Below are positions 17,861-29,447 of a stretch of DNA of 64,000 nt, piece after piece. The DNA comes from Bacteroidales bacterium (GTDB lineage: Bacteria; Bacteroidota; Bacteroidia; Bacteroidales; UBA7960): NCBI GenBank assembly GCA_003559735.1, contig PWKN01000117.1:20663-84662 (forward strand), read 5' to 3'. A model generated the notes under the pieces. The model worked only from the letters and a program-made list of their open reading frames with translations. It had not been told where the DNA came from and searched no databases. The position numbers were made by a program, and so were the translations under genes. Position 1 is the stretch's first letter. Every line of letters starts with the position of its first letter.

Positions 17861-18892
17861 TTACACTTCATCGATCAGTACCAGTTTTTTCCTGAGTTGA
17901 ACGGTTTCGTTAACCTTCATGATACACCTGCGTGCTTCGGCAAAACTCAGCGACTGCTGTCCGTCAGATATGGCCCGTTCGGGCACCTGATGAATCTCCA
18001 TCAGCAGTCCGTCGGCCCCGGCCATCACCGATGCCAATGCCATCGCCTCCACATAGGACCGGAGTCCGACTCCATGCGACGGGTCAGAAAAAACAGGCAG
18101 GTGGCTTTTCTCTTTCAGATAAGGGATGGCATTCAGGTCCATCGTATTGCGATATGCATTCTCGAATGTCCGTATACCCCGCTCACAAAGAATGATCTTT
18201 TCATTTCCGTTGGAAAACACATATTCGGCTGATGCAAGCAACTCTTCCAGGGTAGACGACATGCCCCGCTTCAAAAGAACCGGTTTGTCTACCCTGCCCA
18301 GTTCATCGAGCAGGTTGTAGTTTTGTGCATTGCGTGTCCCCACCTGGAAAATATCCACAAAATCATGCATTACATCTACCTGCGACACCTGCATCACCTC
18401 ACTGATCACATATATTCCGTTTTCCCTGCAGTGCCTGTATAACATCTTCAACCCCTCAATACCCAGTCCGCGAAAGGAATAGGGAGAGCTGCGCGGCTTG
18501 AACACCCCTCCACGCATCACCCTTACCCCTTCCGCTTTCAGGAACTTCACCATTTCTGCCACCTGTTCTTCATTTTCCACGGAACAGGGTCCCATGATCA
18601 TTGTAAAATCATTCCTGGAAATTGCCAAATCGCCGTTCAGGGGTATTCTGGTTGTCTCCACCTTCCACTGGCGGCTTACCAGCTTGCTGCTGTCCTTAAC
18701 CACGTGTACATCACGTATGCCGGGGAGGTTGCCAATATGCCGTATGTCAAATGGTGCAGATCCCACACAAACAATATACGCACCGTACTGGGTTTTTACA
18801 GTGGCCGGGGCATAGCCCAGGGTTTTTACCTCTTCAAGAATTCTGTTCTTGTTATTGGCCGAACAATCTTTTGTTGTTTGAATGATCATCAT
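17861..18892 (-). CDS. 3-deoxy-7-phosphoheptulosonate (DAHP) synthase, type I-beta, with N-terminal ferredoxin-like regulatory domain
   Basis: 343 aa. KPRSSPYSFRGLG and SDPSHG motifs, plus an N-terminal extra domain of about 75 aa. Its ATG overlaps the trpA stop by 1 nt (TGATG). Confidence 0.9.
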   Translation of the reverse strand: MMIIQTTKDCSANNKNRILEEVKTLGYAPATVKTQYGAYIVCVGSAPFDIRHIGNLPGIRDVHVVKDSSKLVSRQWKVETTRIPLNGDLAISRNDFTMIMGPCSVENEEQVAEMVKFLKAEGVRVMRGGVFKPRSSPYSFRGLGIEGLKMLYRHCRENGIYVISEVMQVSQVDVMHDFVDIFQVGTRNAQNYNLLDELGRVDKPVLLKRGMSSTLEELLASAEYVFSNGNEKIILCERGIRTFENAYRNTMDLNAIPYLKEKSHLPVFSDPSHGVGLRSYVEAMALASVMAGADGLLMEIHQVPERAISDGQQSLSFAEARRCIMKVNETVQLRKKLVLIDEV

Positions 18893-19680
18893 CAGATGGT
18901 TTTTTCTGGTTGTATCCCTAGTTGCTGAAATAATTTATCCAGTGCCTTATGCGGATCATCGTGCATCATTCGCAGCCTGATATATGCTGTGCCTGTAATT
19001 GCTCCACTGGTGTATTTCCAGGCCTGTCCCAGGCTGCTCTGGTCATTGATGCCAAAACCCGTTATCAGTGGTGTTTTAAGCTTCATTTGATACAATCGCC
19101 GAAGAAACACCGCTCTTTCTTCGATGGCTGTCCGGGTACCGGTAGTAGATGACGCACCCACAGCATAAATAAATGCAGTACTGACCGCATCAATTTCCCT
19201 TATGCGGCTTTCGGGCGTTGTAGGGGTTACCAGGAAGACAAAATGCAACCCGTACCGCTGCATCAACTCTTTAAGCAGGCTGTTGTACTCTGAAAAAGGG
19301 ACATCCGGCAATATCAGTCCGGCTACACCCGCCTGCCTGGCATCCCGACAAAACTGTTCAGGTCCGTATTGCAAGACGGGATTCAGGTAGCCCATCAGCA
19401 AAACAGGCAGCGGGAGTGTTCCGTTGAATTGCTTTAATTGTTCAAACAGCCGCTTCAGCCCCATTCCGTTTGCAAGCGCCTGTGTGCTGGCCTGCTGGAT
19501 AACCGGACCATCGGCCAGCGGGTCGGAAAAGGGCATGCCAAGCTCAACAAAGTCTACCCCTTTATCTGCCATCGCTTGCATATCTGAAATGGTATCCTCC
19601 AGCTTTGGGAACCCGGCAGTATAATACACTGACAGGATTTTCCCGGAGGTCCTTTGTACTGTTTTTAATAGTGAATTCAT
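18892..19680 (-). CDS. trpA: Tryptophan synthase alpha chain
   Basis: 262 aa with ELGMPFSDPLADGPVIQ. Confidence 0.95.
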   Translation of the reverse strand: MNSLLKTVQRTSGKILSVYYTAGFPKLEDTISDMQAMADKGVDFVELGMPFSDPLADGPVIQQASTQALANGMGLKRLFEQLKQFNGTLPLPVLLMGYLNPVLQYGPEQFCRDARQAGVAGLILPDVPFSEYNSLLKELMQRYGLHFVFLVTPTTPESRIREIDAVSTAFIYAVGASSTTGTRTAIEERAVFLRRLYQMKLKTPLITGFGINDQSSLGQAWKYTSGAITGTAYIRLRMMHDDPHKALDKLFQQLGIQPEKTI

Positions 19681-20861
19681 AACCGGTCAGCATATTTTTG
19701 ATAGGTGTCCATATCTTTATCTCCCCTGCCAGAAAGGCATATAACCAAAACCTGCTGCTTGTCCGGCCTGATCTTTTCCAATATTGCCAGGGCGTGAGCT
19801 GATTCCAGTGCAGGGATGATCCCTTCCAGACGGGTAAGTCGCAGAGCTGCCTGTAACGCCTCCTTATCGGTAACGGCCATATAGTCAGCCTTCCCTGACT
19901 GGCTCAGCCACGCATGAAGGGGGCCAATCCCAGGATAATCGAGTCCGGCGGAAACAGAGTGTGCCTCACTGATCTGTCCGTCGTCATCCTGCATGATCAG
20001 TGTCCGCGTCCCGTGCAGCACTCCTTCGCTGCCCAATGTAATGGTGGCTGCCGTTTCACCGCTTTGTACACCTTTTCCGGCAGCTTCAGCACCAATGAGC
20101 CGGGTAACGCCATTGCCGATAAAATGGAAAAAAGCGCCGGCTGCATTGCTGCCCCCACCCACACACGCCACCACATAGTCGGGCACTTCTTTGTTTTCCT
20201 TTTCCTGCAGTTGTGTGGTGATCTCCCTGCTGATCACCGACTGCAGGCTTGCCACCAGGTCGGGATAGGGATGTGGCCCGATGGTTGAACCGATCAGGTA
20301 ATAGGTGTTCAGGGGGTGGTTTATCCAGTAACGGATCGCTTCATTGGTGGCATCCTTGAGTGTCTGGCTGCCCGAGGTTACTTCCTGCACCTCCGCTCCC
20401 AGCATCCGCATACGCAGCACGTTCAACTGCTGCCGTTCCATATCCTTCTTTCCCATAAACACTGTACAGGGCAAGCGGAGCAATGCACATACGGTGGCAG
20501 TGGCCACCCCATGCTGTCCGGCACCCGTTTCGGCCACTATATGCTCCTTCCCCATCCGCCTGGCCAGCAGTGCCTGGCCAACAACATTGTTGAGTTTATG
20601 GGCTCCGGTATGGCACAAATCTTCACGTTTCAGGTATATCCGTGTGCCGTAGTGTTCAGAGAGGTTGCCGGCAAAAAACAATGGAGTGGGACGTCCCACA
20701 TAGTCCTTCAGTAAATGCCGGAATTCCTCCTGGAACCCCTTGCTGGCAATAATGCTCCTGTATGACCCTTCCAGTTCTGATACGTTGGCCTGCAGCAACT
20801 CCGGAATCCACGCCCCTCCAAAGGCCCCGTAGTAGCCACGATCATCGGGATGTATGTTCAT
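19677..20861 (-). CDS. trpB: Tryptophan synthase beta chain
   Basis: 394 aa with the PLP-Lys motif HTGAHKLNN. It has ATGA overlaps with both trpF and trpA. Confidence 0.97.
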   Translation of the reverse strand: MNIHPDDRGYYGAFGGAWIPELLQANVSELEGSYRSIIASKGFQEEFRHLLKDYVGRPTPLFFAGNLSEHYGTRIYLKREDLCHTGAHKLNNVVGQALLARRMGKEHIVAETGAGQHGVATATVCALLRLPCTVFMGKKDMERQQLNVLRMRMLGAEVQEVTSGSQTLKDATNEAIRYWINHPLNTYYLIGSTIGPHPYPDLVASLQSVISREITTQLQEKENKEVPDYVVACVGGGSNAAGAFFHFIGNGVTRLIGAEAAGKGVQSGETAATITLGSEGVLHGTRTLIMQDDDGQISEAHSVSAGLDYPGIGPLHAWLSQSGKADYMAVTDKEALQAALRLTRLEGIIPALESAHALAILEKIRPDKQQVLVICLSGRGDKDMDTYQKYADRL

Positions 20862-21475
20862 GTTCTTAACTCCTCTATAAACCGTTGTAAAAGTTGAATG
20901 TTTTTGTAGCCAGGGTGGACTTCAAAACGGGAGTTCACATCTGCACCAGACAAATGCTTCAGCGGCATGTCCCTTATTTTTTCTGCATCTTCCGGTCCAA
21001 TGCCCCCGGCAATAAAAAATGGTGTCGGACCATTGTATGGATTCAGCAGCGAATGATCAAAAGAGATGCTGTTGCCGCCGGGTTTTTCACCGGCGGTGTC
21101 AAACAACAAATAATCGCATGCCCCACAGTAGTCCTCCAGCGAGCCGGGCAAGACACTTCCCACAGAGAATGTCTTTATGACCATGGCGTGTTTCCTGATC
21201 TCAAAACATTGCTCCGGACTTTCCTTGCCATGCAGTTGAATGGCGTCGAAGCCAAACTGCCTGACAAGGCGGATATTCCCTTCCGTCGACCTGTTTACGG
21301 TCAGCGCCACACTGATGACAGACGACGGAAGGTCCTTCAGCGGCAGATGATCCATCCGGCTGCTGACATCCCTTGGCGACGGACGGTAAAAGATAAACCC
21401 CATCATGTCTGGCAATAATTCTCCTACTGCCATCATGTTTTTCTGGTCGGTGATACCACAGACTTTGATTTGCAT
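20858..21475 (-). CDS. trpF: Phosphoribosylanthranilate isomerase
   Basis: MQIKVCGIT start. I chose ATG 21475, 4 nt after the trpC stop, instead of ORF start 21502. Confidence 0.9.
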   Translation of the reverse strand: MQIKVCGITDQKNMMAVGELLPDMMGFIFYRPSPRDVSSRMDHLPLKDLPSSVISVALTVNRSTEGNIRLVRQFGFDAIQLHGKESPEQCFEIRKHAMVIKTFSVGSVLPGSLEDYCGACDYLLFDTAGEKPGGNSISFDHSLLNPYNGPTPFFIAGGIGPEDAEKIRDMPLKHLSGADVNSRFEVHPGYKNIQLLQRFIEELRT

Positions 21476-21479
21476 GTGT

Positions 21480-22286
21480 TTATGATTTGTTTGCTGTTGC
21501 AAGGTTTTTTACCTGTTTGATAAAGCGCCGGCAGGCTTTCCCCGGATCCATTTCCCGCATAAACCGTTCTCCGATCAGGAATCCGTTATATCCGGCCGAC
21601 TTAAGTTCGGGGATTTTTTTCGCATCATCGATCCCGCTTTCAGCCACCCTGACAATATTTTCCGGCAGGAGTGCAGCCATCTCCAGGGTATGCGATTTGT
21701 TAAGGGTAAACGTCTTCAGGTTCCTGTTGTTGACGCCCACTATCGCTGTCTCCGGTGGCAGCTTGCCGATGCCTGCAGCATCGTGTACTTCAAAAAGAAC
21801 TTCCATTTGAAGGTTGTGCGCCAGGTCGCTGAGTTGTTTCATCTCCCCGGCCGACAGTATGGCGGCAATCAGCAATATGGCATCAGCACCAATGCTACGG
21901 GCCTCCAGCACCTGGTATTCATCGATGATAAAGTCTTTGCGCAGGATCGGACAGAAATTGTTTTGCCGCGCCGCCATCAGGTCGTCGTTGCTTCCCCCAA
22001 AATAATGACCATCGGTTATGATTGACAATGCCGATGCACCTGCCTGCATATAAGCCAGGGAAACCCGGGCAGGATCAGCGTATTCGTTGATCATGCCCTT
22101 TGAAGGCGACCTTCGCTTGAACTCGGCAATGATGCCGGTGAGGTCATCCCGCATCAGGTAATGCTTTAATGAAACCGGCCTTGCCCTGTTGTAAATGCTT
22201 TTCTCAAGTCGCCTGACCGGGTTTGTTGCTTTGTTTTCCGCTACTTCCTTTTTCTTGGTTTCGACGATCTGGTCCAATATATTCAT
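21480..22286 (-). CDS. trpC: Indole-3-glycerol phosphate synthase
   Basis: 268 aa with the IAEFKRRSPSKG motif. Confidence 0.95.
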   Translation of the reverse strand: MNILDQIVETKKKEVAENKATNPVRRLEKSIYNRARPVSLKHYLMRDDLTGIIAEFKRRSPSKGMINEYADPARVSLAYMQAGASALSIITDGHYFGGSNDDLMAARQNNFCPILRKDFIIDEYQVLEARSIGADAILLIAAILSAGEMKQLSDLAHNLQMEVLFEVHDAAGIGKLPPETAIVGVNNRNLKTFTLNKSHTLEMAALLPENIVRVAESGIDDAKKIPELKSAGYNGFLIGERFMREMDPGKACRRFIKQVKNLATANKS

Positions 22287-23278
22287 TATTGCAGAGCTAT
22301 TAATTGTTTAAACCGTTTGTGCGCATTTCCCGATCTGATCGATTCATCTGCCAGTGAAACCGCTTCCGGCAGTGTTTTCGCCTTACCGTAACAATATATG
22401 GCCATTGCTGCGTTGGCGATCACTGCGTTATGCTGTTGTATTGTTGCCTTGTTTTCCAGCACATCATGAAACACCCTGGCAGATGCATCCACACTTGTTC
22501 CGCCCACCAGGTCACCGGGGGTATTGCCCGGCAATCCAAAATCCCCGGGTTGCAACAGATCTTCACCCGAACGGCTGAATATTTTAAGAGGTGCTGTAAG
22601 CGATACCTCATCATAACCATCAAGCGAATACACCACCATGAACTGCTTCTTTTCCTGCTGGAGCAGGTAGCTGAAAATTCTGCCCGCCTCAATACTGAAA
22701 ACCCCGTTAAGCTGGTATTTTGGCCAGGCAGGATTTACCAGCGGACCCAGGATGTTAAAAAATGTTTTTACGCCCAGCTGTCTGCGTACTGGTCCGACCG
22801 CTTTTAATGCAGGATGAAACAGCGGGGCGTGCATAAAACATATTCCCGCCTTTTCGATCTCGCGATTCAGCTTGTCTGCATCTGTACTGAAGATATATCC
22901 CATATGTGCCATCAGGTTTGAAGAACCGGAGGACGAAGATATCCCGTAGTTTCCGTGTTTGGCTACAGGTATACCCGCACCTGCCACCACAAAGGCAGAA
23001 AGGGTGCTGATGTTAAACGTGTTTTTGTTATCCCCCCCGGTACCACAAACATCGATGGCATCGCCGCCATTGATCTTTACCTCGTGGGCAAGGTCAAGGA
23101 TGGCATCCCTGAACCCCAGCAACTCATCAATGCTTATGCTGCGCATTACGTACGCTGACAAAACCGCAGCAATGCGTGACTCATTCAATGCCCCCCCGGC
23201 GATGGCATGCATCATTTCCCTGGCCTCCGTACGGGTGAGCAATTGTGATTCAAGCAGTTTATTCAGTAATTGGTTCAT
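22286..23278 (-). CDS. trpD: Anthranilate phosphoribosyltransferase
   Basis: GTGGDNKNTFNIST motif. Homology begins at MNQLLNKLL (ATG 23278). The ORF stays open up to 23380, so the start is ambiguous. If 23278 is right, a 117-nt spacer follows trpG. Confidence 0.9.
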   Translation of the reverse strand: MNQLLNKLLESQLLTRTEAREMMHAIAGGALNESRIAAVLSAYVMRSISIDELLGFRDAILDLAHEVKINGGDAIDVCGTGGDNKNTFNISTLSAFVVAGAGIPVAKHGNYGISSSSGSSNLMAHMGYIFSTDADKLNREIEKAGICFMHAPLFHPALKAVGPVRRQLGVKTFFNILGPLVNPAWPKYQLNGVFSIEAGRIFSYLLQQEKKQFMVVYSLDGYDEVSLTAPLKIFSRSGEDLLQPGDFGLPGNTPGDLVGGTSVDASARVFHDVLENKATIQQHNAVIANAAMAIYCYGKAKTLPEAVSLADESIRSGNAHKRFKQLIALQ

Positions 23279-23395
23279 GTTCCTGTAATTTATCGTTATT
23301 ATTTCTGGTAACTCCAATCCGCCACCTGATGGCAACCATTCGCCTGTGTGGTGAAAGATCCCTGTCCGCCACCGGTTCATCCAAATGTATTGTCA

Positions 23396-24001
23396 TCAAA
23401 CCGTTTGCGTTTTGGCCTCTGTATTGGTAAATCCCGACAACCAGTTTTGAATGATGGTCTTTCCGTCAGGGGTAAGGATCGATTCGGGATGAAACTGTAC
23501 CCCGCAAACATCATATTCCCTGTGGCTTATGGCCATGATCCTTCCCTGCTGATCAACGGCATCTACACGCAACTGTCCGGGAAAACCATTGCTGTCGGCC
23601 ATCCATGAATTATAGCGTCCGGCCATAAAACCTGATGCCAGACCGTTGAACAGGTAGTGCCGTGGTGCGCAGATCTCCACCGGCGTAGCCACGCCATGAT
23701 AGACCTTTTCAATATTTACCAATTGTCCGCCAAACACCTGTGTGATGGCCTGCAATCCCAAACAGACACCAAACATGCGCTTCTTTTTATAATATTGTCC
23801 GATCATCTTCAGCAGCAAACCCGCCTCTTCAGGAATACCAGGTCCGGGCGACAGGATGATGCCATCATAAAGATCTATCGCTTCCAGTGCGATCTGGTCG
23901 TTGCGGGCCACATCCAGACTGTGTTCGCCTGTCTCGCGCACATAATGCACAAGGTTCCACGTAAAAGAATCATAATTGTCGAAAACCAGTATGTTTGCCA
24001 T
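23396..24001 (-). CDS. trpG: Anthranilate synthase component II (glutamine amidotransferase)
   Basis: 201 aa with catalytic GVCLGLQA and GVQFHPES. Confidence 0.95.
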   Translation of the reverse strand: MANILVFDNYDSFTWNLVHYVRETGEHSLDVARNDQIALEAIDLYDGIILSPGPGIPEEAGLLLKMIGQYYKKKRMFGVCLGLQAITQVFGGQLVNIEKVYHGVATPVEICAPRHYLFNGLASGFMAGRYNSWMADSNGFPGQLRVDAVDQQGRIMAISHREYDVCGVQFHPESILTPDGKTIIQNWLSGFTNTEAKTQTV

Positions 24002-24051
24002 AATTGATCATTTTATCTATTTGTCCCTTCCTTCCTGTACCCACAGTCTGT

Positions 24052-25467
24052 TCAAACGGTACCGAACCCTTCGGCCATCTGTATGGCTTTTCGCAGTGCG
24101 CTGATCTTCCCGTTCACTTCATTGAGTTCTCCCTGCGGACTGGATTCGATGACGACTCCGGCGCCGGCCTGATAGATCAGTCTGCCTCTCAGGCTAAGGA
24201 ATGACCGGATCATGATGGCATGGTTCAGTGTACCATTGAGTCCGATAAACCCGATTGCTCCCCCGTAAAAACCCCGTGCACGGTCTTCGTATTGATCTAT
24301 AAGCTGTATCGCTTTGTGCTTGGGGGCGCCCGACAATGTTCCGGCGGGGAAAGTATCTGCAAACAAACGGTATTTTTTCGCTTCCTTGTCCAGCCTGCCG
24401 CTAACCGTTGATACCAGGTGTATCACGTGAGAATAGGTTTGCACCTGGCGAAATGTTTCTACTTTTATTTCTGATGCATGTTTGCTCAGATCGTTGCGTG
24501 CCAGGTCGACGAGCATACAATGTTCGGAGTTTTCCTTTTGATTGGCCAGCAACTCCTCTACAAGCGCAGCATCTTTGAGGGGGTCTTCCTGGCGGATCAC
24601 GGTGCCTGCAATGGGATTGATCAGGGCCATGTTTTGGTTCACCTGCAGCTGTGCCTCAGGCGATGAGCCAAACAGCTTATAGGACAAGTAGTCAAAATAG
24701 AACAAATAGGGCGATGGGTTGATTGAGCGCAGCGCCCGGTACACATTGAACTCGTCGCCGGTAAAATCCTGCTCGAAACGCCGCGACAGTACGATCTGGA
24801 ACACATCGCCACGGGCACAGTGTCCGATGCCCTTGTTTACCATTTCCATATAGCTGTCGTCGGTGGTGGGAGATCTTTCTGTTCCTGTTCTGCAAAAAGG
24901 GAAGCAGGTGGCGTTCCGGTTGGCAAGCAATGAACGTATCGCAGGTACGATCGTTTGACGATCTTTGTCCAGCAACTCACAAATGACAAGGGTGTGGTTG
25001 AAATGGTTGAAAGCAATCACCACCTGGTACAGATCATAACGCAACAGGGGTATACGGTCATTGTCGTTATCCGGCCGGCGAATGTTTACGTTATCGAAGT
25101 AATTTACCGCATCATAGGCGGTATAGCCAAAAACACCCGGCATGTGCCGTTCATCAGGAGCGTTTTCAATGGCAAACGAGGCCAGAAAGTCCTCAACAAT
25201 ATCTGTTACCGGCATACTGCCGTCGATGGTACGGGTTTTTTCTTCTGAGTTGTTGTATCTGACTTTCAGATTGTTCCCCTCCATCTCCACCCCAGCCATT
25301 GGTTGCAGGCATATATATGAATACGCGTCCTGCCTGCTGCTGTAGTCGGCGCACTCCAGCAACTGACACTGAGGAAATGCGTCGCGCAACCGCAGATAGA
25401 TGCCTACCGGGGTGAAGGTATCGGCCTGCAGGAGATGAATGTCTGCTTTGAGTTGAATCTTTTGCAT
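24052..25467 (-). CDS. trpE: Anthranilate synthase component I
   Basis: 471 aa chorismate-binding enzyme with C-terminal GFYGGAIGFIG and AGAGVV motifs. Confidence 0.95.
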   Translation of the reverse strand: MQKIQLKADIHLLQADTFTPVGIYLRLRDAFPQCQLLECADYSSRQDAYSYICLQPMAGVEMEGNNLKVRYNNSEEKTRTIDGSMPVTDIVEDFLASFAIENAPDERHMPGVFGYTAYDAVNYFDNVNIRRPDNDNDRIPLLRYDLYQVVIAFNHFNHTLVICELLDKDRQTIVPAIRSLLANRNATCFPFCRTGTERSPTTDDSYMEMVNKGIGHCARGDVFQIVLSRRFEQDFTGDEFNVYRALRSINPSPYLFYFDYLSYKLFGSSPEAQLQVNQNMALINPIAGTVIRQEDPLKDAALVEELLANQKENSEHCMLVDLARNDLSKHASEIKVETFRQVQTYSHVIHLVSTVSGRLDKEAKKYRLFADTFPAGTLSGAPKHKAIQLIDQYEDRARGFYGGAIGFIGLNGTLNHAIMIRSFLSLRGRLIYQAGAGVVIESSPQGELNEVNGKISALRKAIQMAEGFGTV

Positions 25468-25622
25468 CTTTATTCCTGTTTAATATGGATTATATACTGT
25501 TCCGGGTCTTTGAACCCGCCTTTTACAAACTCGCCGAAGACTCCGTTGCCAGACGATCATCATCTGCCGTCGTCACCCTGAAGGGCATTGCCCCGGTTCA
25601 TGTCCTGAGCGATCAGGCACAC

Positions 25623-25651
25623 AAAAAAGCCCGCTTGCGTGTCAAGCGGGC
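25623..25651 (-). terminator. Intrinsic terminator (attenuator) between the trp leader ORF and trpE
   Basis: On the minus-strand RNA: GCCCGCUUG-ACACG-CAAGCGGGC (9-bp stem) followed by UUUUUU. It lies 40 nt after the leader stop and about 155 nt before the trpE ATG. Confidence 0.8.
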
Positions 25652-25691
25652 TTTTTCACAAAATGATGCCTTGAATAATATCTTAACATCC

Positions 25692-25772
25692 CTATGGCCT
25701 ATAGCACCTGACACAGCAACCGAGGCTGTTGTGCCACCACCAAAAGCAAAAGGTATGTTTCGATCTCTTCAT
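25692..25772 (-). CDS. trpL: trp operon leader peptide (26 aa, three consecutive Trp codons)
   Basis: MKRSKHTFCFWWWHNSLGCCVRCYRP*. TGG TGG TGG lies at 25734-25742 on the minus strand. This is the 3' part of track ORF 25692..25946. Confidence 0.75.
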   Translation of the reverse strand: MKRSKHTFCFWWWHNSLGCCVRCYRP

Positions 25773-25792
25773 CTCTGTTCTGATTTCGCCTG

Positions 25793-25800
25793 CAATATTA
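25793..25800 (-). promoter_or_regulatory. Candidate -7 promoter box TAATATTG for the trp leader
   Basis: Minus strand TAATATTGCAG sits 21 nt upstream of the leader ATG. The identical 11-mer occurs upstream of the Phe/Tyr leader at 29283-29293. Confidence 0.35.
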
Positions 25801-25870
25801 AGGATAATTTTTGAATAAACAACCGTATAAAAAAATTTTTTATATTTGCAATTCATAAAAAAATAATTCA

Positions 25871-25911: not shown

Positions 25912-25962
25912 ATGATTGCCTCATACATCATTAATAATAATAACAATAACTGCCCACCTTAG
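25912..25962 (+). CDS. asnA leader peptide (16 aa, six consecutive Asn codons)
   Basis: MIASYIINNNNNNCPP*. AAT AAT AAT AAC AAT AAC lies at 25933-25950. Confidence 0.7.
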   Translation: MIASYIINNNNNNCPP

Positions 25963-26000
25963 TCAAGGCGGTTGCTTTGTTATGCCTGAAAATCATATGA

Positions 26001-26026
26001 GCCCGCCAATTGGCGGGCTTTTTTTA
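26001..26026 (+). terminator. Intrinsic terminator (attenuator) upstream of asnA
   Basis: GCCCGCC-AATT-GGCGGGC followed by TTTTTTT. It lies 38 nt after the leader stop and 42 nt before the asnA ATG. Confidence 0.8.
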
Positions 26027-26055
26027 TTTATTCACTTTTTATTTATTCACTTTTT
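26026..26055 (+). repeat. Perfect 15-bp tandem duplication ATTTATTCACTTTTT x2
   Basis: 26026-26040 equals 26041-26055, read directly. It sits between the attenuator terminator and the asnA ATG. Confidence 0.9.
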
Positions 26056-26067
26056 AAATTAATTATC

Positions 26068-27078
26068 ATGTCAGCAACAACAGAGATCCTGAAAACCGAG
26101 CGAGCCATTGCTTTTGTCAAAGACCATTTTGAAAAGGCCTTGTCGAATCGTTTGAACCTGATCAAAGTGTCATCCCCCATAGCGGTAATGGAAAATACCG
26201 GGTTGAATGATGAGCTTAACGGGGTGGAGCGTCCGGTCAATTTCATGGTGAAGTCCGCCAACGGCAGTCCTGCCGTTATTGTCCATTCGCTGGCCAAATG
26301 GAAGCGCTTACGGTTGAAACAGCTTGATATAGCGCCGGGCATGGGTGTTCTGACAGATATGAGGGCACTCAGGCCAGAAGAAGACTATACCCCGCTGCAT
26401 TCAATATATGTAGACCAGTGGGACTGGGAGCAAAGCATGCTGCCTGAGGAACGCACACTTTCTTTCCTGAAAGCCACTGTTAAAAGAATCTATGAGGCCC
26501 TGAAAGAGACCGAGAAGCTGTTTTGCGAAGCCTTTACAGCATTTTCTCCAACCCTTGCCGACCAGATCACCTTCTTCCATGCCGAAGAACTGGCACAGCG
26601 CTATCCTGATCTTACTCCAAAACAAAGGGAAACTGAAATTACCAGGGAGTATGGTTCTGTTTTCATTATCGGTATTGGGGCCGAACTGTCCGACGGACTG
26701 GCGCATGATGGCCGTGCACCCGATTACGACGACTGGTCGTCAGAGAATGAAGAGGGGAGCATCGGACTCAATGGCGACATCATTGTGTGGAACCATGTAC
26801 TGGAGGATGCCTTTGAAATATCTTCAATGGGGATCCGTGTTGATCCCGAGGCCCTTCAGCGTCAGCTGGTGTTGCGTCGCTGCCCGGAAAAAGCAAGTTA
26901 TCCTTTTCATCAGATGCTGCTCAGGGGAGAGCTGCCACAGAGTATCGGGGGCGGTATCGGACAATCGAGGGTATGCATGTTCATGCTCAGAAAGTCGCAT
27001 ATAGGCGAAGTGCAGGTTGGCATTTGGCCGGAAGGAGAAAAAGAGCGCCTGGAAGCAGAGGGCATCCGGTTGCTATAG
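26068..27078 (+). CDS. asnA: Aspartate--ammonia ligase (asparagine synthetase A)
   Basis: 336 aa. VHSLAKWKR, YVDQWDWE, LNGDIIVWNHVLEDAFEISSMGIRVD and GGGIGQSR closely match E. coli AsnA as I recall it. Confidence 0.95.
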   Translation: MSATTEILKTERAIAFVKDHFEKALSNRLNLIKVSSPIAVMENTGLNDELNGVERPVNFMVKSANGSPAVIVHSLAKWKRLRLKQLDIAPGMGVLTDMRALRPEEDYTPLHSIYVDQWDWEQSMLPEERTLSFLKATVKRIYEALKETEKLFCEAFTAFSPTLADQITFFHAEELAQRYPDLTPKQRETEITREYGSVFIIGIGAELSDGLAHDGRAPDYDDWSSENEEGSIGLNGDIIVWNHVLEDAFEISSMGIRVDPEALQRQLVLRRCPEKASYPFHQMLLRGELPQSIGGGIGQSRVCMFMLRKSHIGEVQVGIWPEGEKERLEAEGIRLL

Positions 27079-29290: not shown

Positions 29291-29316
29291 CAGTCGTCAA
29301 AAAGAAAGAAAAGATC

Positions 29317-29385
29317 ATGAACAGCACATTTGTCACCTATTTTTATTTTTACTTTTACTTCTTTAGCGATAAAGGGGTCTGGTGA
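29317..29385 (+). CDS. Phe/Tyr-rich leader peptide 1 (22 aa)
   Basis: MNSTFVTYFYFYFYFFSDKGVW*. Codons 8-16 comprise 5 Phe and 4 Tyr. Confidence 0.75.
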   Translation: MNSTFVTYFYFYFYFFSDKGVW

Positions 29386-29420
29386 TATTGTGTGCAGAAA
29401 ACCGAATAATTAAGTATCCA

Positions 29421-29447
29421 GACCCCGCAAAAGCGGGGTTTTTTTTT
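29421..29447 (+). terminator. Attenuator terminator 1
   Basis: ACCCCGC-AAAA-GCGGGGT followed by a 9-T run. CCAGACCCC (29418-29426) overlaps its 5' arm and is perfectly complementary to GGGGTCTGG (29374-29382) at the end of leader 1. Confidence 0.85.

Follow-up and report, generated by a model that had tools for sequence, protein, structure and literature searches.

The trp operon and its leader

Here we describe the leader region of a tryptophan biosynthesis (trp) operon in a Bacteroidales bacterium (GenBank assembly GCA_003559735.1, contig PWKN01000117.1, positions 20,663 to 84,662), which very probably acts as a ribosome-mediated transcription attenuator. All coordinates refer to the whole 64,000-nucleotide (nt) stretch that was analyzed, hereafter the window. 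Genes assigned by Pfam matches lie on its minus strand in the order trpE (24052-25467), trpG (23396-24001), trpD (22286-23380), trpC (21480-22286), trpF (20858-21502), trpB (19677-20861), trpA (18892-19680) and a 3-deoxy-D-arabino-heptulosonate 7-phosphate (DAHP) synthase gene (PF00793; 17861-18892). These open reading frames (ORFs) abut or overlap on a single strand and are presumed to be regulated together (17861..25467). The trpE product carries the Anth_synt_I_N and Chorismate_bind domains, and its best matches are proteins of Bacteroidales and other Bacteroidota metagenome-assembled genomes; DNA of the same species is present in salt-lake and soda-lake metagenomes. Since the ATG of the DAHP synthase gene overlaps the trpA stop codon, the enzyme that opens the common aromatic pathway appears to be placed under control of the tryptophan (Trp) leader.

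Upstream of trpE, whose ATG is at 25467, lies a leader ORF of 26 codons followed by TAG (25692..25772, minus strand; ATG at 25772, TAG at 25694-25692), a trpL-like upstream ORF (uORF) encoding the peptide MKRSKHTFCFWWWHNSLGCCVRCYRP. Its codons 11-13 are three tandem UGG codons (25734..25742, minus strand; ORF nt 31-39), the proposed sensing site. The triplet is not improbable by itself, because about 1.1 occurrences of TGGTGGTGG would be expected by chance in the 64-kb window and a single one is found; the case therefore stands on context and conservation. What exceeds chance is the position of the run, in frame within a uORF ahead of trpE, and its conservation in relatives.

A putative Bacteroidetes-type -7 promoter box, TAATATTG, is found ahead of the leader ORF (25793..25800, minus strand) and has one mismatch to the -7 consensus of this phylum, TAnnTTTG. 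Boxes of the form (T/G)TAATATTGCA stand at an equal distance before the leader ORF in eleven related trpE loci (L087, L088, L090-L096, L006 and L177). On this basis, transcription of the leader would begin a few bases past the box.

Alternative pairing in the leader RNA

Beginning 40 nt past the leader stop codon is an intrinsic terminator, GCCCGCUUG-ACACG-CAAGCGGGC (25651-25629), followed by six U residues (25628-25623). Its 9-bp G+C-rich stem, with flanking A/U pairs, has a folding energy of -23.8 kcal/mol (z = -6.6 relative to dinucleotide shuffles), and the distance from the U-tract to trpE is 155 nt. Counted from the first nucleotide of the ORF, the terminator occupies nt 122-144, following the Trp codons at nt 31-39, the sequence GUGUCAGGUG at nt 59-68 and the stop codon at nt 79-81.

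The leader can be divided into four segments on the minus strand in the manner of classical trp leaders. Segment 1 (UGGCACA.CAGC, 25725..25736) comprises the third Trp codon and the following three codons, and forms the 5' strand of a 1:2 hairpin in minimum-free-energy folds. Segment 2 (GUUG.UGUGUCAGGUG, 25705..25720) pairs with segment 1 through its 5' part and with segment 3 through its 3' part, GUGUCAGGUG (25714-25705). Segment 3 (GCCCGCUUG plus ACAC, 25639..25651) consists of the 5' arm of the terminator and the first bases of its loop, and has segment 2 or segment 4 as alternative partners. Segment 4 and the U-tract (25623..25637) form the 3' arm and release site of the terminator, with CAAGCGGGC at 25637-25629 and UUUUUU at 25628-25623. 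The 1:2, 2:3 and 3:4 helices are mutually exclusive, because segment 2 is common to the first two and segment 3 to the last two.

The 2:3 helix, a candidate antiterminator, contains 10 bp between GUGUCAGGUG and CGCUUGACAC, and an additional GGC/GCC contact adds three pairs and occupies the entire 5' arm of the terminator. The 2:3 duplex has an energy of -18.5 kcal/mol, compared with -10.7 +/- 2.4 kcal/mol for shuffled partners (p ~0.007). Once segment 1 and the terminator 3' arm are removed, the minimum-energy fold of the leader is the antiterminator. Its upstream strand lies 20 nt past the last Trp codon and 11 nt ahead of the stop codon. The 1:2 hairpin (-13.5 kcal/mol) includes the third Trp codon, and the terminator comes 53 nt after it.

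These results bear on an earlier annotation of the locus made by inspection of the letters and their ORFs (the sequence-only reading), which had called a WWW-encoding leader ORF upstream of trpE and a terminator with six U residues 40 nt past its stop codon; both are present. Its pairing of GUGUCAGG (25714-25707) with CUUGACAC (25646-25639) was also borne out, in a helix that proved longer, at 10 bp plus the GGC/GCC contact. The possible 1:2 hairpin exists, but not in the ACAGC/GCUGU register that had been offered for it: the register in the window is shifted to UGGCACA.CAGC with GUUG.UGUGUCA.

Conservation and covariation in relatives

The arrangement seen in the window recurs widely. A short Trp-rich ORF followed by a terminator is found just upstream of trpE in approximately 70 of 85 Bacteroidota loci, and tandem TGG codons occur upstream of trpE in 79 of 96, with exactly three codons in 71 of those 79. 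The 15 relatives read from the nearest clade (L001, L004, L006, L007, L087-L096 and L177; 55-71% TrpE identity) all share the same layout of a TAATATTGCA-type promoter box, leader, GUUAAGCG block and terminator. Their leaders have 24-27 codons and the motif (F/N)WWW(H/R/C), and the 5' arm of their terminators reads CCCGCUUAAC.

Pairing and covariation were counted on a 15-sequence MAFFT alignment of the nearest clade, with controls in which the partner columns were slid (by 1-3 columns for the 3' partner of the terminator). The UGG codons are invariant or nearly so. Terminator positions are paired in 94.7% of cases, compared with 31-56% in the slid controls, and those of the 10-bp antiterminator in 88.8%, compared with 30-43%; four pairs changed on both sides in each helix, and because the counts are uncorrected for shared ancestry they are supportive rather than probabilistic. 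An alignment-free test paired the terminator 5' arm with the segment that follows the Trp codons; in 49 of 78 loci this duplex is stronger than 95% of shuffles.

The clearest single case involves three strands at once. The clade consensus CGCUUAAC in segment 3 pairs with GUUAAGCG in segment 2, and most of the clade has GUUAAGCG, CGCUUAAC and (G)UUAAGYG across segments 2, 3 and 4. In the window the corresponding version is CGCUUGAC pairing with GUCAGGUG: here, and in L004, U is replaced by C in segment 2, A by G in segment 3 and U by C in segment 4, at matching positions. This three-strand compensatory change provides a clean comparative illustration of selection on both alternative helices.

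For the 1:2 helix, 83.7% of positions are paired on the same alignment, compared with 4-55% in slid controls, and the hairpin folds in 15 of 15 clade members taken singly, with differing inner sequence. Where the CAC codon for His is replaced by CGC or UGC (L091, L094 and L092), its pairing partner in the 1:2 hairpin is changed as well, which indicates a constraint at the RNA level. The two comparisons that the sequence-only reading had proposed as checks, conservation of the WWW ORF and covariation in the helices, came out in its favor, the first in the 79 of 96 loci with tandem TGG and the second in the paired fractions and double-sided changes of the terminator and antiterminator.

The codon after the Trp run specifies His in 46 of the 79 leaders (CAT in 25, CAC in 21) and is of the form CAN in 53 of 79; in the window it lies at 25731-25733. 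Both His codons are used across the phylum, and the His codon may thus also act at the level of the peptide or of tRNA-His.

Relation to known leader families

A leader of this kind has been predicted before. Weinberg et al. (2010, Genome Biol 11:R31; PMC2864571, Additional file 1) reported the Bacteroid-trp leader motif (Rfam RF01692) from Bacteroidetes, where it precedes trpB and trpE. It was described as having at least two conserved UGG codons and a “loosely conserved hairpin”, with presumed peptide-leader attenuation, and its alignment marks a His codon (CAY) next to the UGG codons (PMC2864571, supplement). Our literature search for descriptions beyond that report returned just a mention of the motif in a paper on Flavobacterium psychrophilum (PMC6414381).

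The element in the window resembles the Bacteroid-trp leader in lying upstream of trpE (by 155 nt) in a Bacteroidota genome, in a short ORF with tandem UGG codons in frame (three, in 26 codons) and a His codon after them, in a hairpin spanning the Trp-codon region and then a terminator (the 5' half of which is in the RF01692 consensus), and in the presumed mode of regulation by peptide-leader attenuation. It differs in the antiterminator core of its clade, GUUAAGCG with CGCUUAAC (in the window GUCAGGUG with CGCUUGAC), in the longer leader peptide of that clade (24-27 residues, the C-terminal part being enriched in Cys, Arg and Lys) and, in the window alone, in a 128-nt insertion past the terminator.

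Among the sampled loci, the RF01692 gathering score of 49 bits is reached solely by loci of the Flavobacteriales type (L057, 67.5 bits; L062, 59.4; L052, 51.6), with two others just below it (L045, 45.9; L031, 43.7). The clade relatives L087, L093, L001 and L004 gave no match to this model at E <= 1. We trained a covariance model, here called R1, on the 15 sequences of the window's clade only; it gives full-length matches just upstream of trpE in approximately 44 untrained loci at E <= 0.01, and it detects RF01692-matching loci outside its training set (L057, 31.8 bits; L062, 28.6; L031, 37.1). As the element has the described features of RF01692 though not its score, and as R1 finds RF01692 loci, we file it as a divergent member of the Bacteroid-trp leader kind, a kind already predicted in 2010. 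This placement is well supported.

The enterobacterial trpL leader (RF00513) offers a second comparison. Both share the four-segment logic of 1:2, 2:3 and 3:4 pairing, tandem Trp codons in a short leader peptide, and an intrinsic terminator before trpE with the core GCCCGC...GCGGGC-U. Unlike the leader of Escherichia coli, that in the window has three Trp codons rather than two, a putative Bacteroidetes-type promoter, and no evident TrpR operator. The stop codon of the E. coli trp leader sits between segments 1 and 2, whereas segment 2 in the window is part of the ORF, with the stop codon 11 nt further on. Sub-threshold alignments of the Rfam Trp_leader and Thr_leader models to the window both depend on the terminator hairpin.

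A proposed tryptophan switch

The locus thus presents the features of a classical trpL-type attenuator: a short ORF enriched in Trp codons (WWW in 26 codons), an intrinsic terminator before trpE, and an exclusive antiterminator, the 10-bp 2:3 helix, that shares bases with both 1:2 and 3:4. We are confident that the best explanation is classical attenuation of transcription upstream of trpE, mediated by a ribosome and with charged tRNA-Trp as the sensed signal. The sequence-only reading had proposed a Trp attenuator with a WWW peptide, a competing antiterminator and a ribosome that masks the RNA while at the stop codon, and recurrence, pairing and geometry all support that proposal. The distances between the Trp codons, segment 2 and the stop codon are compatible with such masking. 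The analysis shows the sequence elements, their mutual exclusion, their conservation and their covariation, whereas footprints, timing, the start of transcription and the response to Trp are deduced from them.

According to this model, transcription would begin a few bases past the TAATATTG box and a ribosome would start on the 26-codon leader. With ample Trp, the ribosome would cross the three UGG codons, melt and cover segment 2 (ORF nt 53-68), and arrive at the stop codon (nt 79-81). From there it would cover the 3' half of the antiterminator strand, leaving segment 3 to pair with segment 4; the terminator hairpin and its six U residues would then release a short transcript of approximately 165 nt near 25623, ahead of trpE. 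When Trp is scarce, the ribosome would stall at UGG codons 11-13 and mask segment 1 (the third UGG and CACAACAGC), and the freed segment 2 (GUGUCAGGUG) would capture CGCUUGACAC, the terminator 5' arm and loop, once this had been transcribed. The antiterminator would preclude the terminator, and polymerase would continue into trpEGDCFBA and the DAHP synthase gene. Were the leader left untranslated, the 1:2 hairpin would be expected to form and segment 3 to remain free, making termination the default.

Several observations weigh against this interpretation. None of the RNA sequencing runs that we searched holds the stretch, and regulation is therefore inferred; to our knowledge, coupling of transcription and translation has not been demonstrated for Bacteroidota leaders. 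The counts for the terminator and antiterminator, as noted, ignore shared ancestry, and no pair of the 1:2 helix changes on both sides in the MAFFT columns, so that its support consists of pairing potential only. The RF01692 model failed to match the window at E <= 10 in searches of either 1401 nt or 201 nt. The best Rfam match, to Trp_leader RF00513 (27 bits, E = 0.0009 in the 201-nt search), is below the gathering score of 41 bits, draws its score mainly from the terminator and leaves the Trp codons uncovered.

The spacer between terminator and trpE

The 155 nt separating the U-tract from trpE had been described in the sequence-only reading as further structured RNA. The distance is correct, but the structure is not borne out: folded alone, these 155 nt are not more stable than shuffles (z = -1.1), and most of them belong to a species-specific insertion. 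In relatives at 55-71% TrpE identity, the gap between terminator and trpE is 26-53 nt. A pairwise alignment to L087 with cheap gap extension opens one 128-nt gap, flanked by linker reading AUCCAUAUUAAACAGG...AUG against ATCCATAGTAAAAACA...ATG; in the MAFFT alignment the insertion does not appear as an internal gap. We therefore read the spacer, from these alignments, as a recent, lineage-specific insertion of approximately 128 nt (25491..25618, minus strand) and approximately 27 nt of ancestral linker. In the alignment, the A-rich linker that joins the insertion to trpE, with its translation initiation region (AUCCAUAUUAAACAGGAAUAAAG, 25468..25490, minus strand), corresponds to the linker ATCCATAGTAAAAACAACACAA of L087, directly ahead of the ATG.

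The insertion was found solely in the same species, namely in a 99% relative (L086) and in strains from metagenome runs X4 and X9 with single substitutions. DNA contigs from four metagenome runs yielded strain variants only, four in all; three of these fall at predicted pairs, of which two break the pair and none is compensated. Searching the spacer against Rfam at E <= 10 gave no match, blastn against the window and all fetched loci returned chance-level matches only, with no copy or repeat, and two exact-pattern scans of JGI metagenome contigs with pieces of the insertion gave no match.

No internal promoter was found on the minus strand of the spacer in a scan for sigma-70-type sequences, nor a TTTG...TAnnTTTG pair by eye. 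The small spacer ORFs were rejected as leaders: a run of Trp codons is missing from MNRGNALQGDDGR and from a 27-codon frame that stops 12 nt short of trpE, and neither is conserved, because the insertion is species-specific.

A different long spacer follows the terminator in L089. It contains a unit of approximately 59 nt (…ATGAAATACCCATGACAAACGCTTTGACACACAGACGCATGATTAT) that is present in three copies in the L089 locus, the other two lying in the trpE-trpG intergenic region at 88-91% identity; one copy occurs in L091 at 78% (blastn; L089 786-1000, 2429-2486 and 2533-2587; L091 528-572). This unit appears to represent a small intergenic repeat family. L089 also carries a tandem CTTCAGAC-type repeat just before trpE. 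Since the L089 spacer holds a repeat, gaps in this lineage can arise by insertion.

Could the 155 nt nevertheless hold a second, independent regulatory RNA, such as a riboswitch-like, protein-binding, or processing and stability element, that would combine with the attenuator in two-stage trp control? Its G+C content of 49% equals the genome average and exceeds that of the leader region (44%) and the upstream intergenic DNA (28%), several other Bacteroidota loci have gaps of 134-270 nt past the terminator, and the complete leader of 326 nt is more stable than its shuffles (z = -4.5). That last value, however, is carried by the attenuator hairpins and not by the spacer, which shows no excess structure when it is folded alone. 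Absence of some 128 nt from every relative at 55-71% TrpE identity, the uncompensated strain substitutions at predicted pairs, and the lack of an Rfam match or of any copy in the window or the searched collections all argue against a second RNA, and the repeat-bearing spacer of L089 suggests repeat insertion rather than regulation. We consider such an element very unlikely. The same low probability applies to the narrower proposal that 25491-25618 was gained recently and adds a second layer of control to read-through transcripts (a protein or small-RNA site, or a stability or translation element), which, if true, would make this a two-stage trp leader. Given no excess structure, conservation or Rfam match, the insertion is most likely a neutral addition to the 5' untranslated region of the read-through transcript.

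Other explanations for the leader

Control of the trp genes need not involve leader translation in every bacterium; trp operons elsewhere are regulated by TRAP in Bacillus and by T-boxes in many Firmicutes. With these precedents in other phyla, and with translation of the uORF not directly shown, one might propose that a trans-acting factor (a TRAP-like protein, contact with uncharged tRNA, or a small RNA) sets the choice between terminator and antiterminator, and that the uORF is incidental. Yet in-frame tandem UGG codons in a short ORF are the most conserved feature of these loci (79 of 96), with variable flanks. No T-box or other Rfam cis-regulator was matched, no array of (G/U)AG repeats is seen in the sequence, and the Trp codon, segment 2 and stop spacing suits ribosome masking. 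We regard a trans-acting factor as highly improbable.

Least probable of all is a protein gene on the plus strand, with leader and terminator as its by-products: the 109-amino-acid ORF at 25485-25814 does span the leader and insertion and was called by the gene caller in the 99% relative, but it is almost certainly spurious. A search of 5.8 billion clustered proteins gave as its sole homologue the 99% identical copy from the same species, much of the frame consists of the insertion, which is missing from relatives in which the leader is conserved, and the pattern of conservation tracks the minus-strand uORF and helices.

Neighboring candidate leaders

Ribosome-mediated attenuation of the trp operon may have company in this part of the window. 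Upstream of asnA (ATG at 26068), a plus-strand region at 25913-26027 holds a uORF, ATG ATT GCC TCA TAC ATC ATT AAT AAT AAT AAC AAT AAC TGC CCA CCT TAG, encoding MIASYIINNNNNNCPP with six consecutive Asn codons. It is preceded by a perfect -7 box, TATATTTG (25841-25848, plus strand), and followed by a terminator, GAGCCCGCCAAUUGGCGGGCUU, with a U run (25999-26027, plus strand). This arrangement resembles a leader-peptide attenuator that would sense Asn and control asparagine synthetase A. Of 80 related loci, 8 have a uORF with a run of Asn codons ahead of asnA, among them 6 of the 11 closest in similarity, and our literature search found no paper describing an Asn leader-peptide attenuator before asnA. 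The putative Asn leader is like the trp leader in combining a uORF enriched in cognate codons with a terminator, and unlike it in codon specificity and in the gene that would be regulated; the two are divergent, with starts only approximately 140 nt apart.

Elsewhere in the window, the R1 model has a weak match on the plus strand at 29311-29446 (18.5 bits, E = 0.13), which is consistent with a leader-plus-terminator architecture shared among the putative attenuators of the window.

Back-to-back leaders are also suggested in relatives. In L089 and L092-L096, a gene for prephenate dehydratase (PF00800) is transcribed away from the trp leader, and the DNA between the two carries a terminator (e.g., AAAAAAAACCCCGCATCGCGGGGCC). 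Sub-threshold matches to the Rfam Phe_leader model (34-39 bits) are found on the opposite strand upstream of trpE in L001 (2036-2157, minus) and L015 (264-540, minus). These observations suggest that Phe or Tyr leader peptides may lie back to back with the trp leader in relatives of this organism.

Conclusions

Our understanding of attenuation itself is unchanged by the element in the window. For annotation, the analysis identifies a previously unannotated 26-codon leader gene ahead of trpE. For the family, it adds a divergent subgroup to a leader kind that Rfam detects almost exclusively in sequences of the Flavobacteriales type, and, since a model trained on this subgroup recovers approximately 44 loci that it was not trained on, the RF01692 family model could be broadened.

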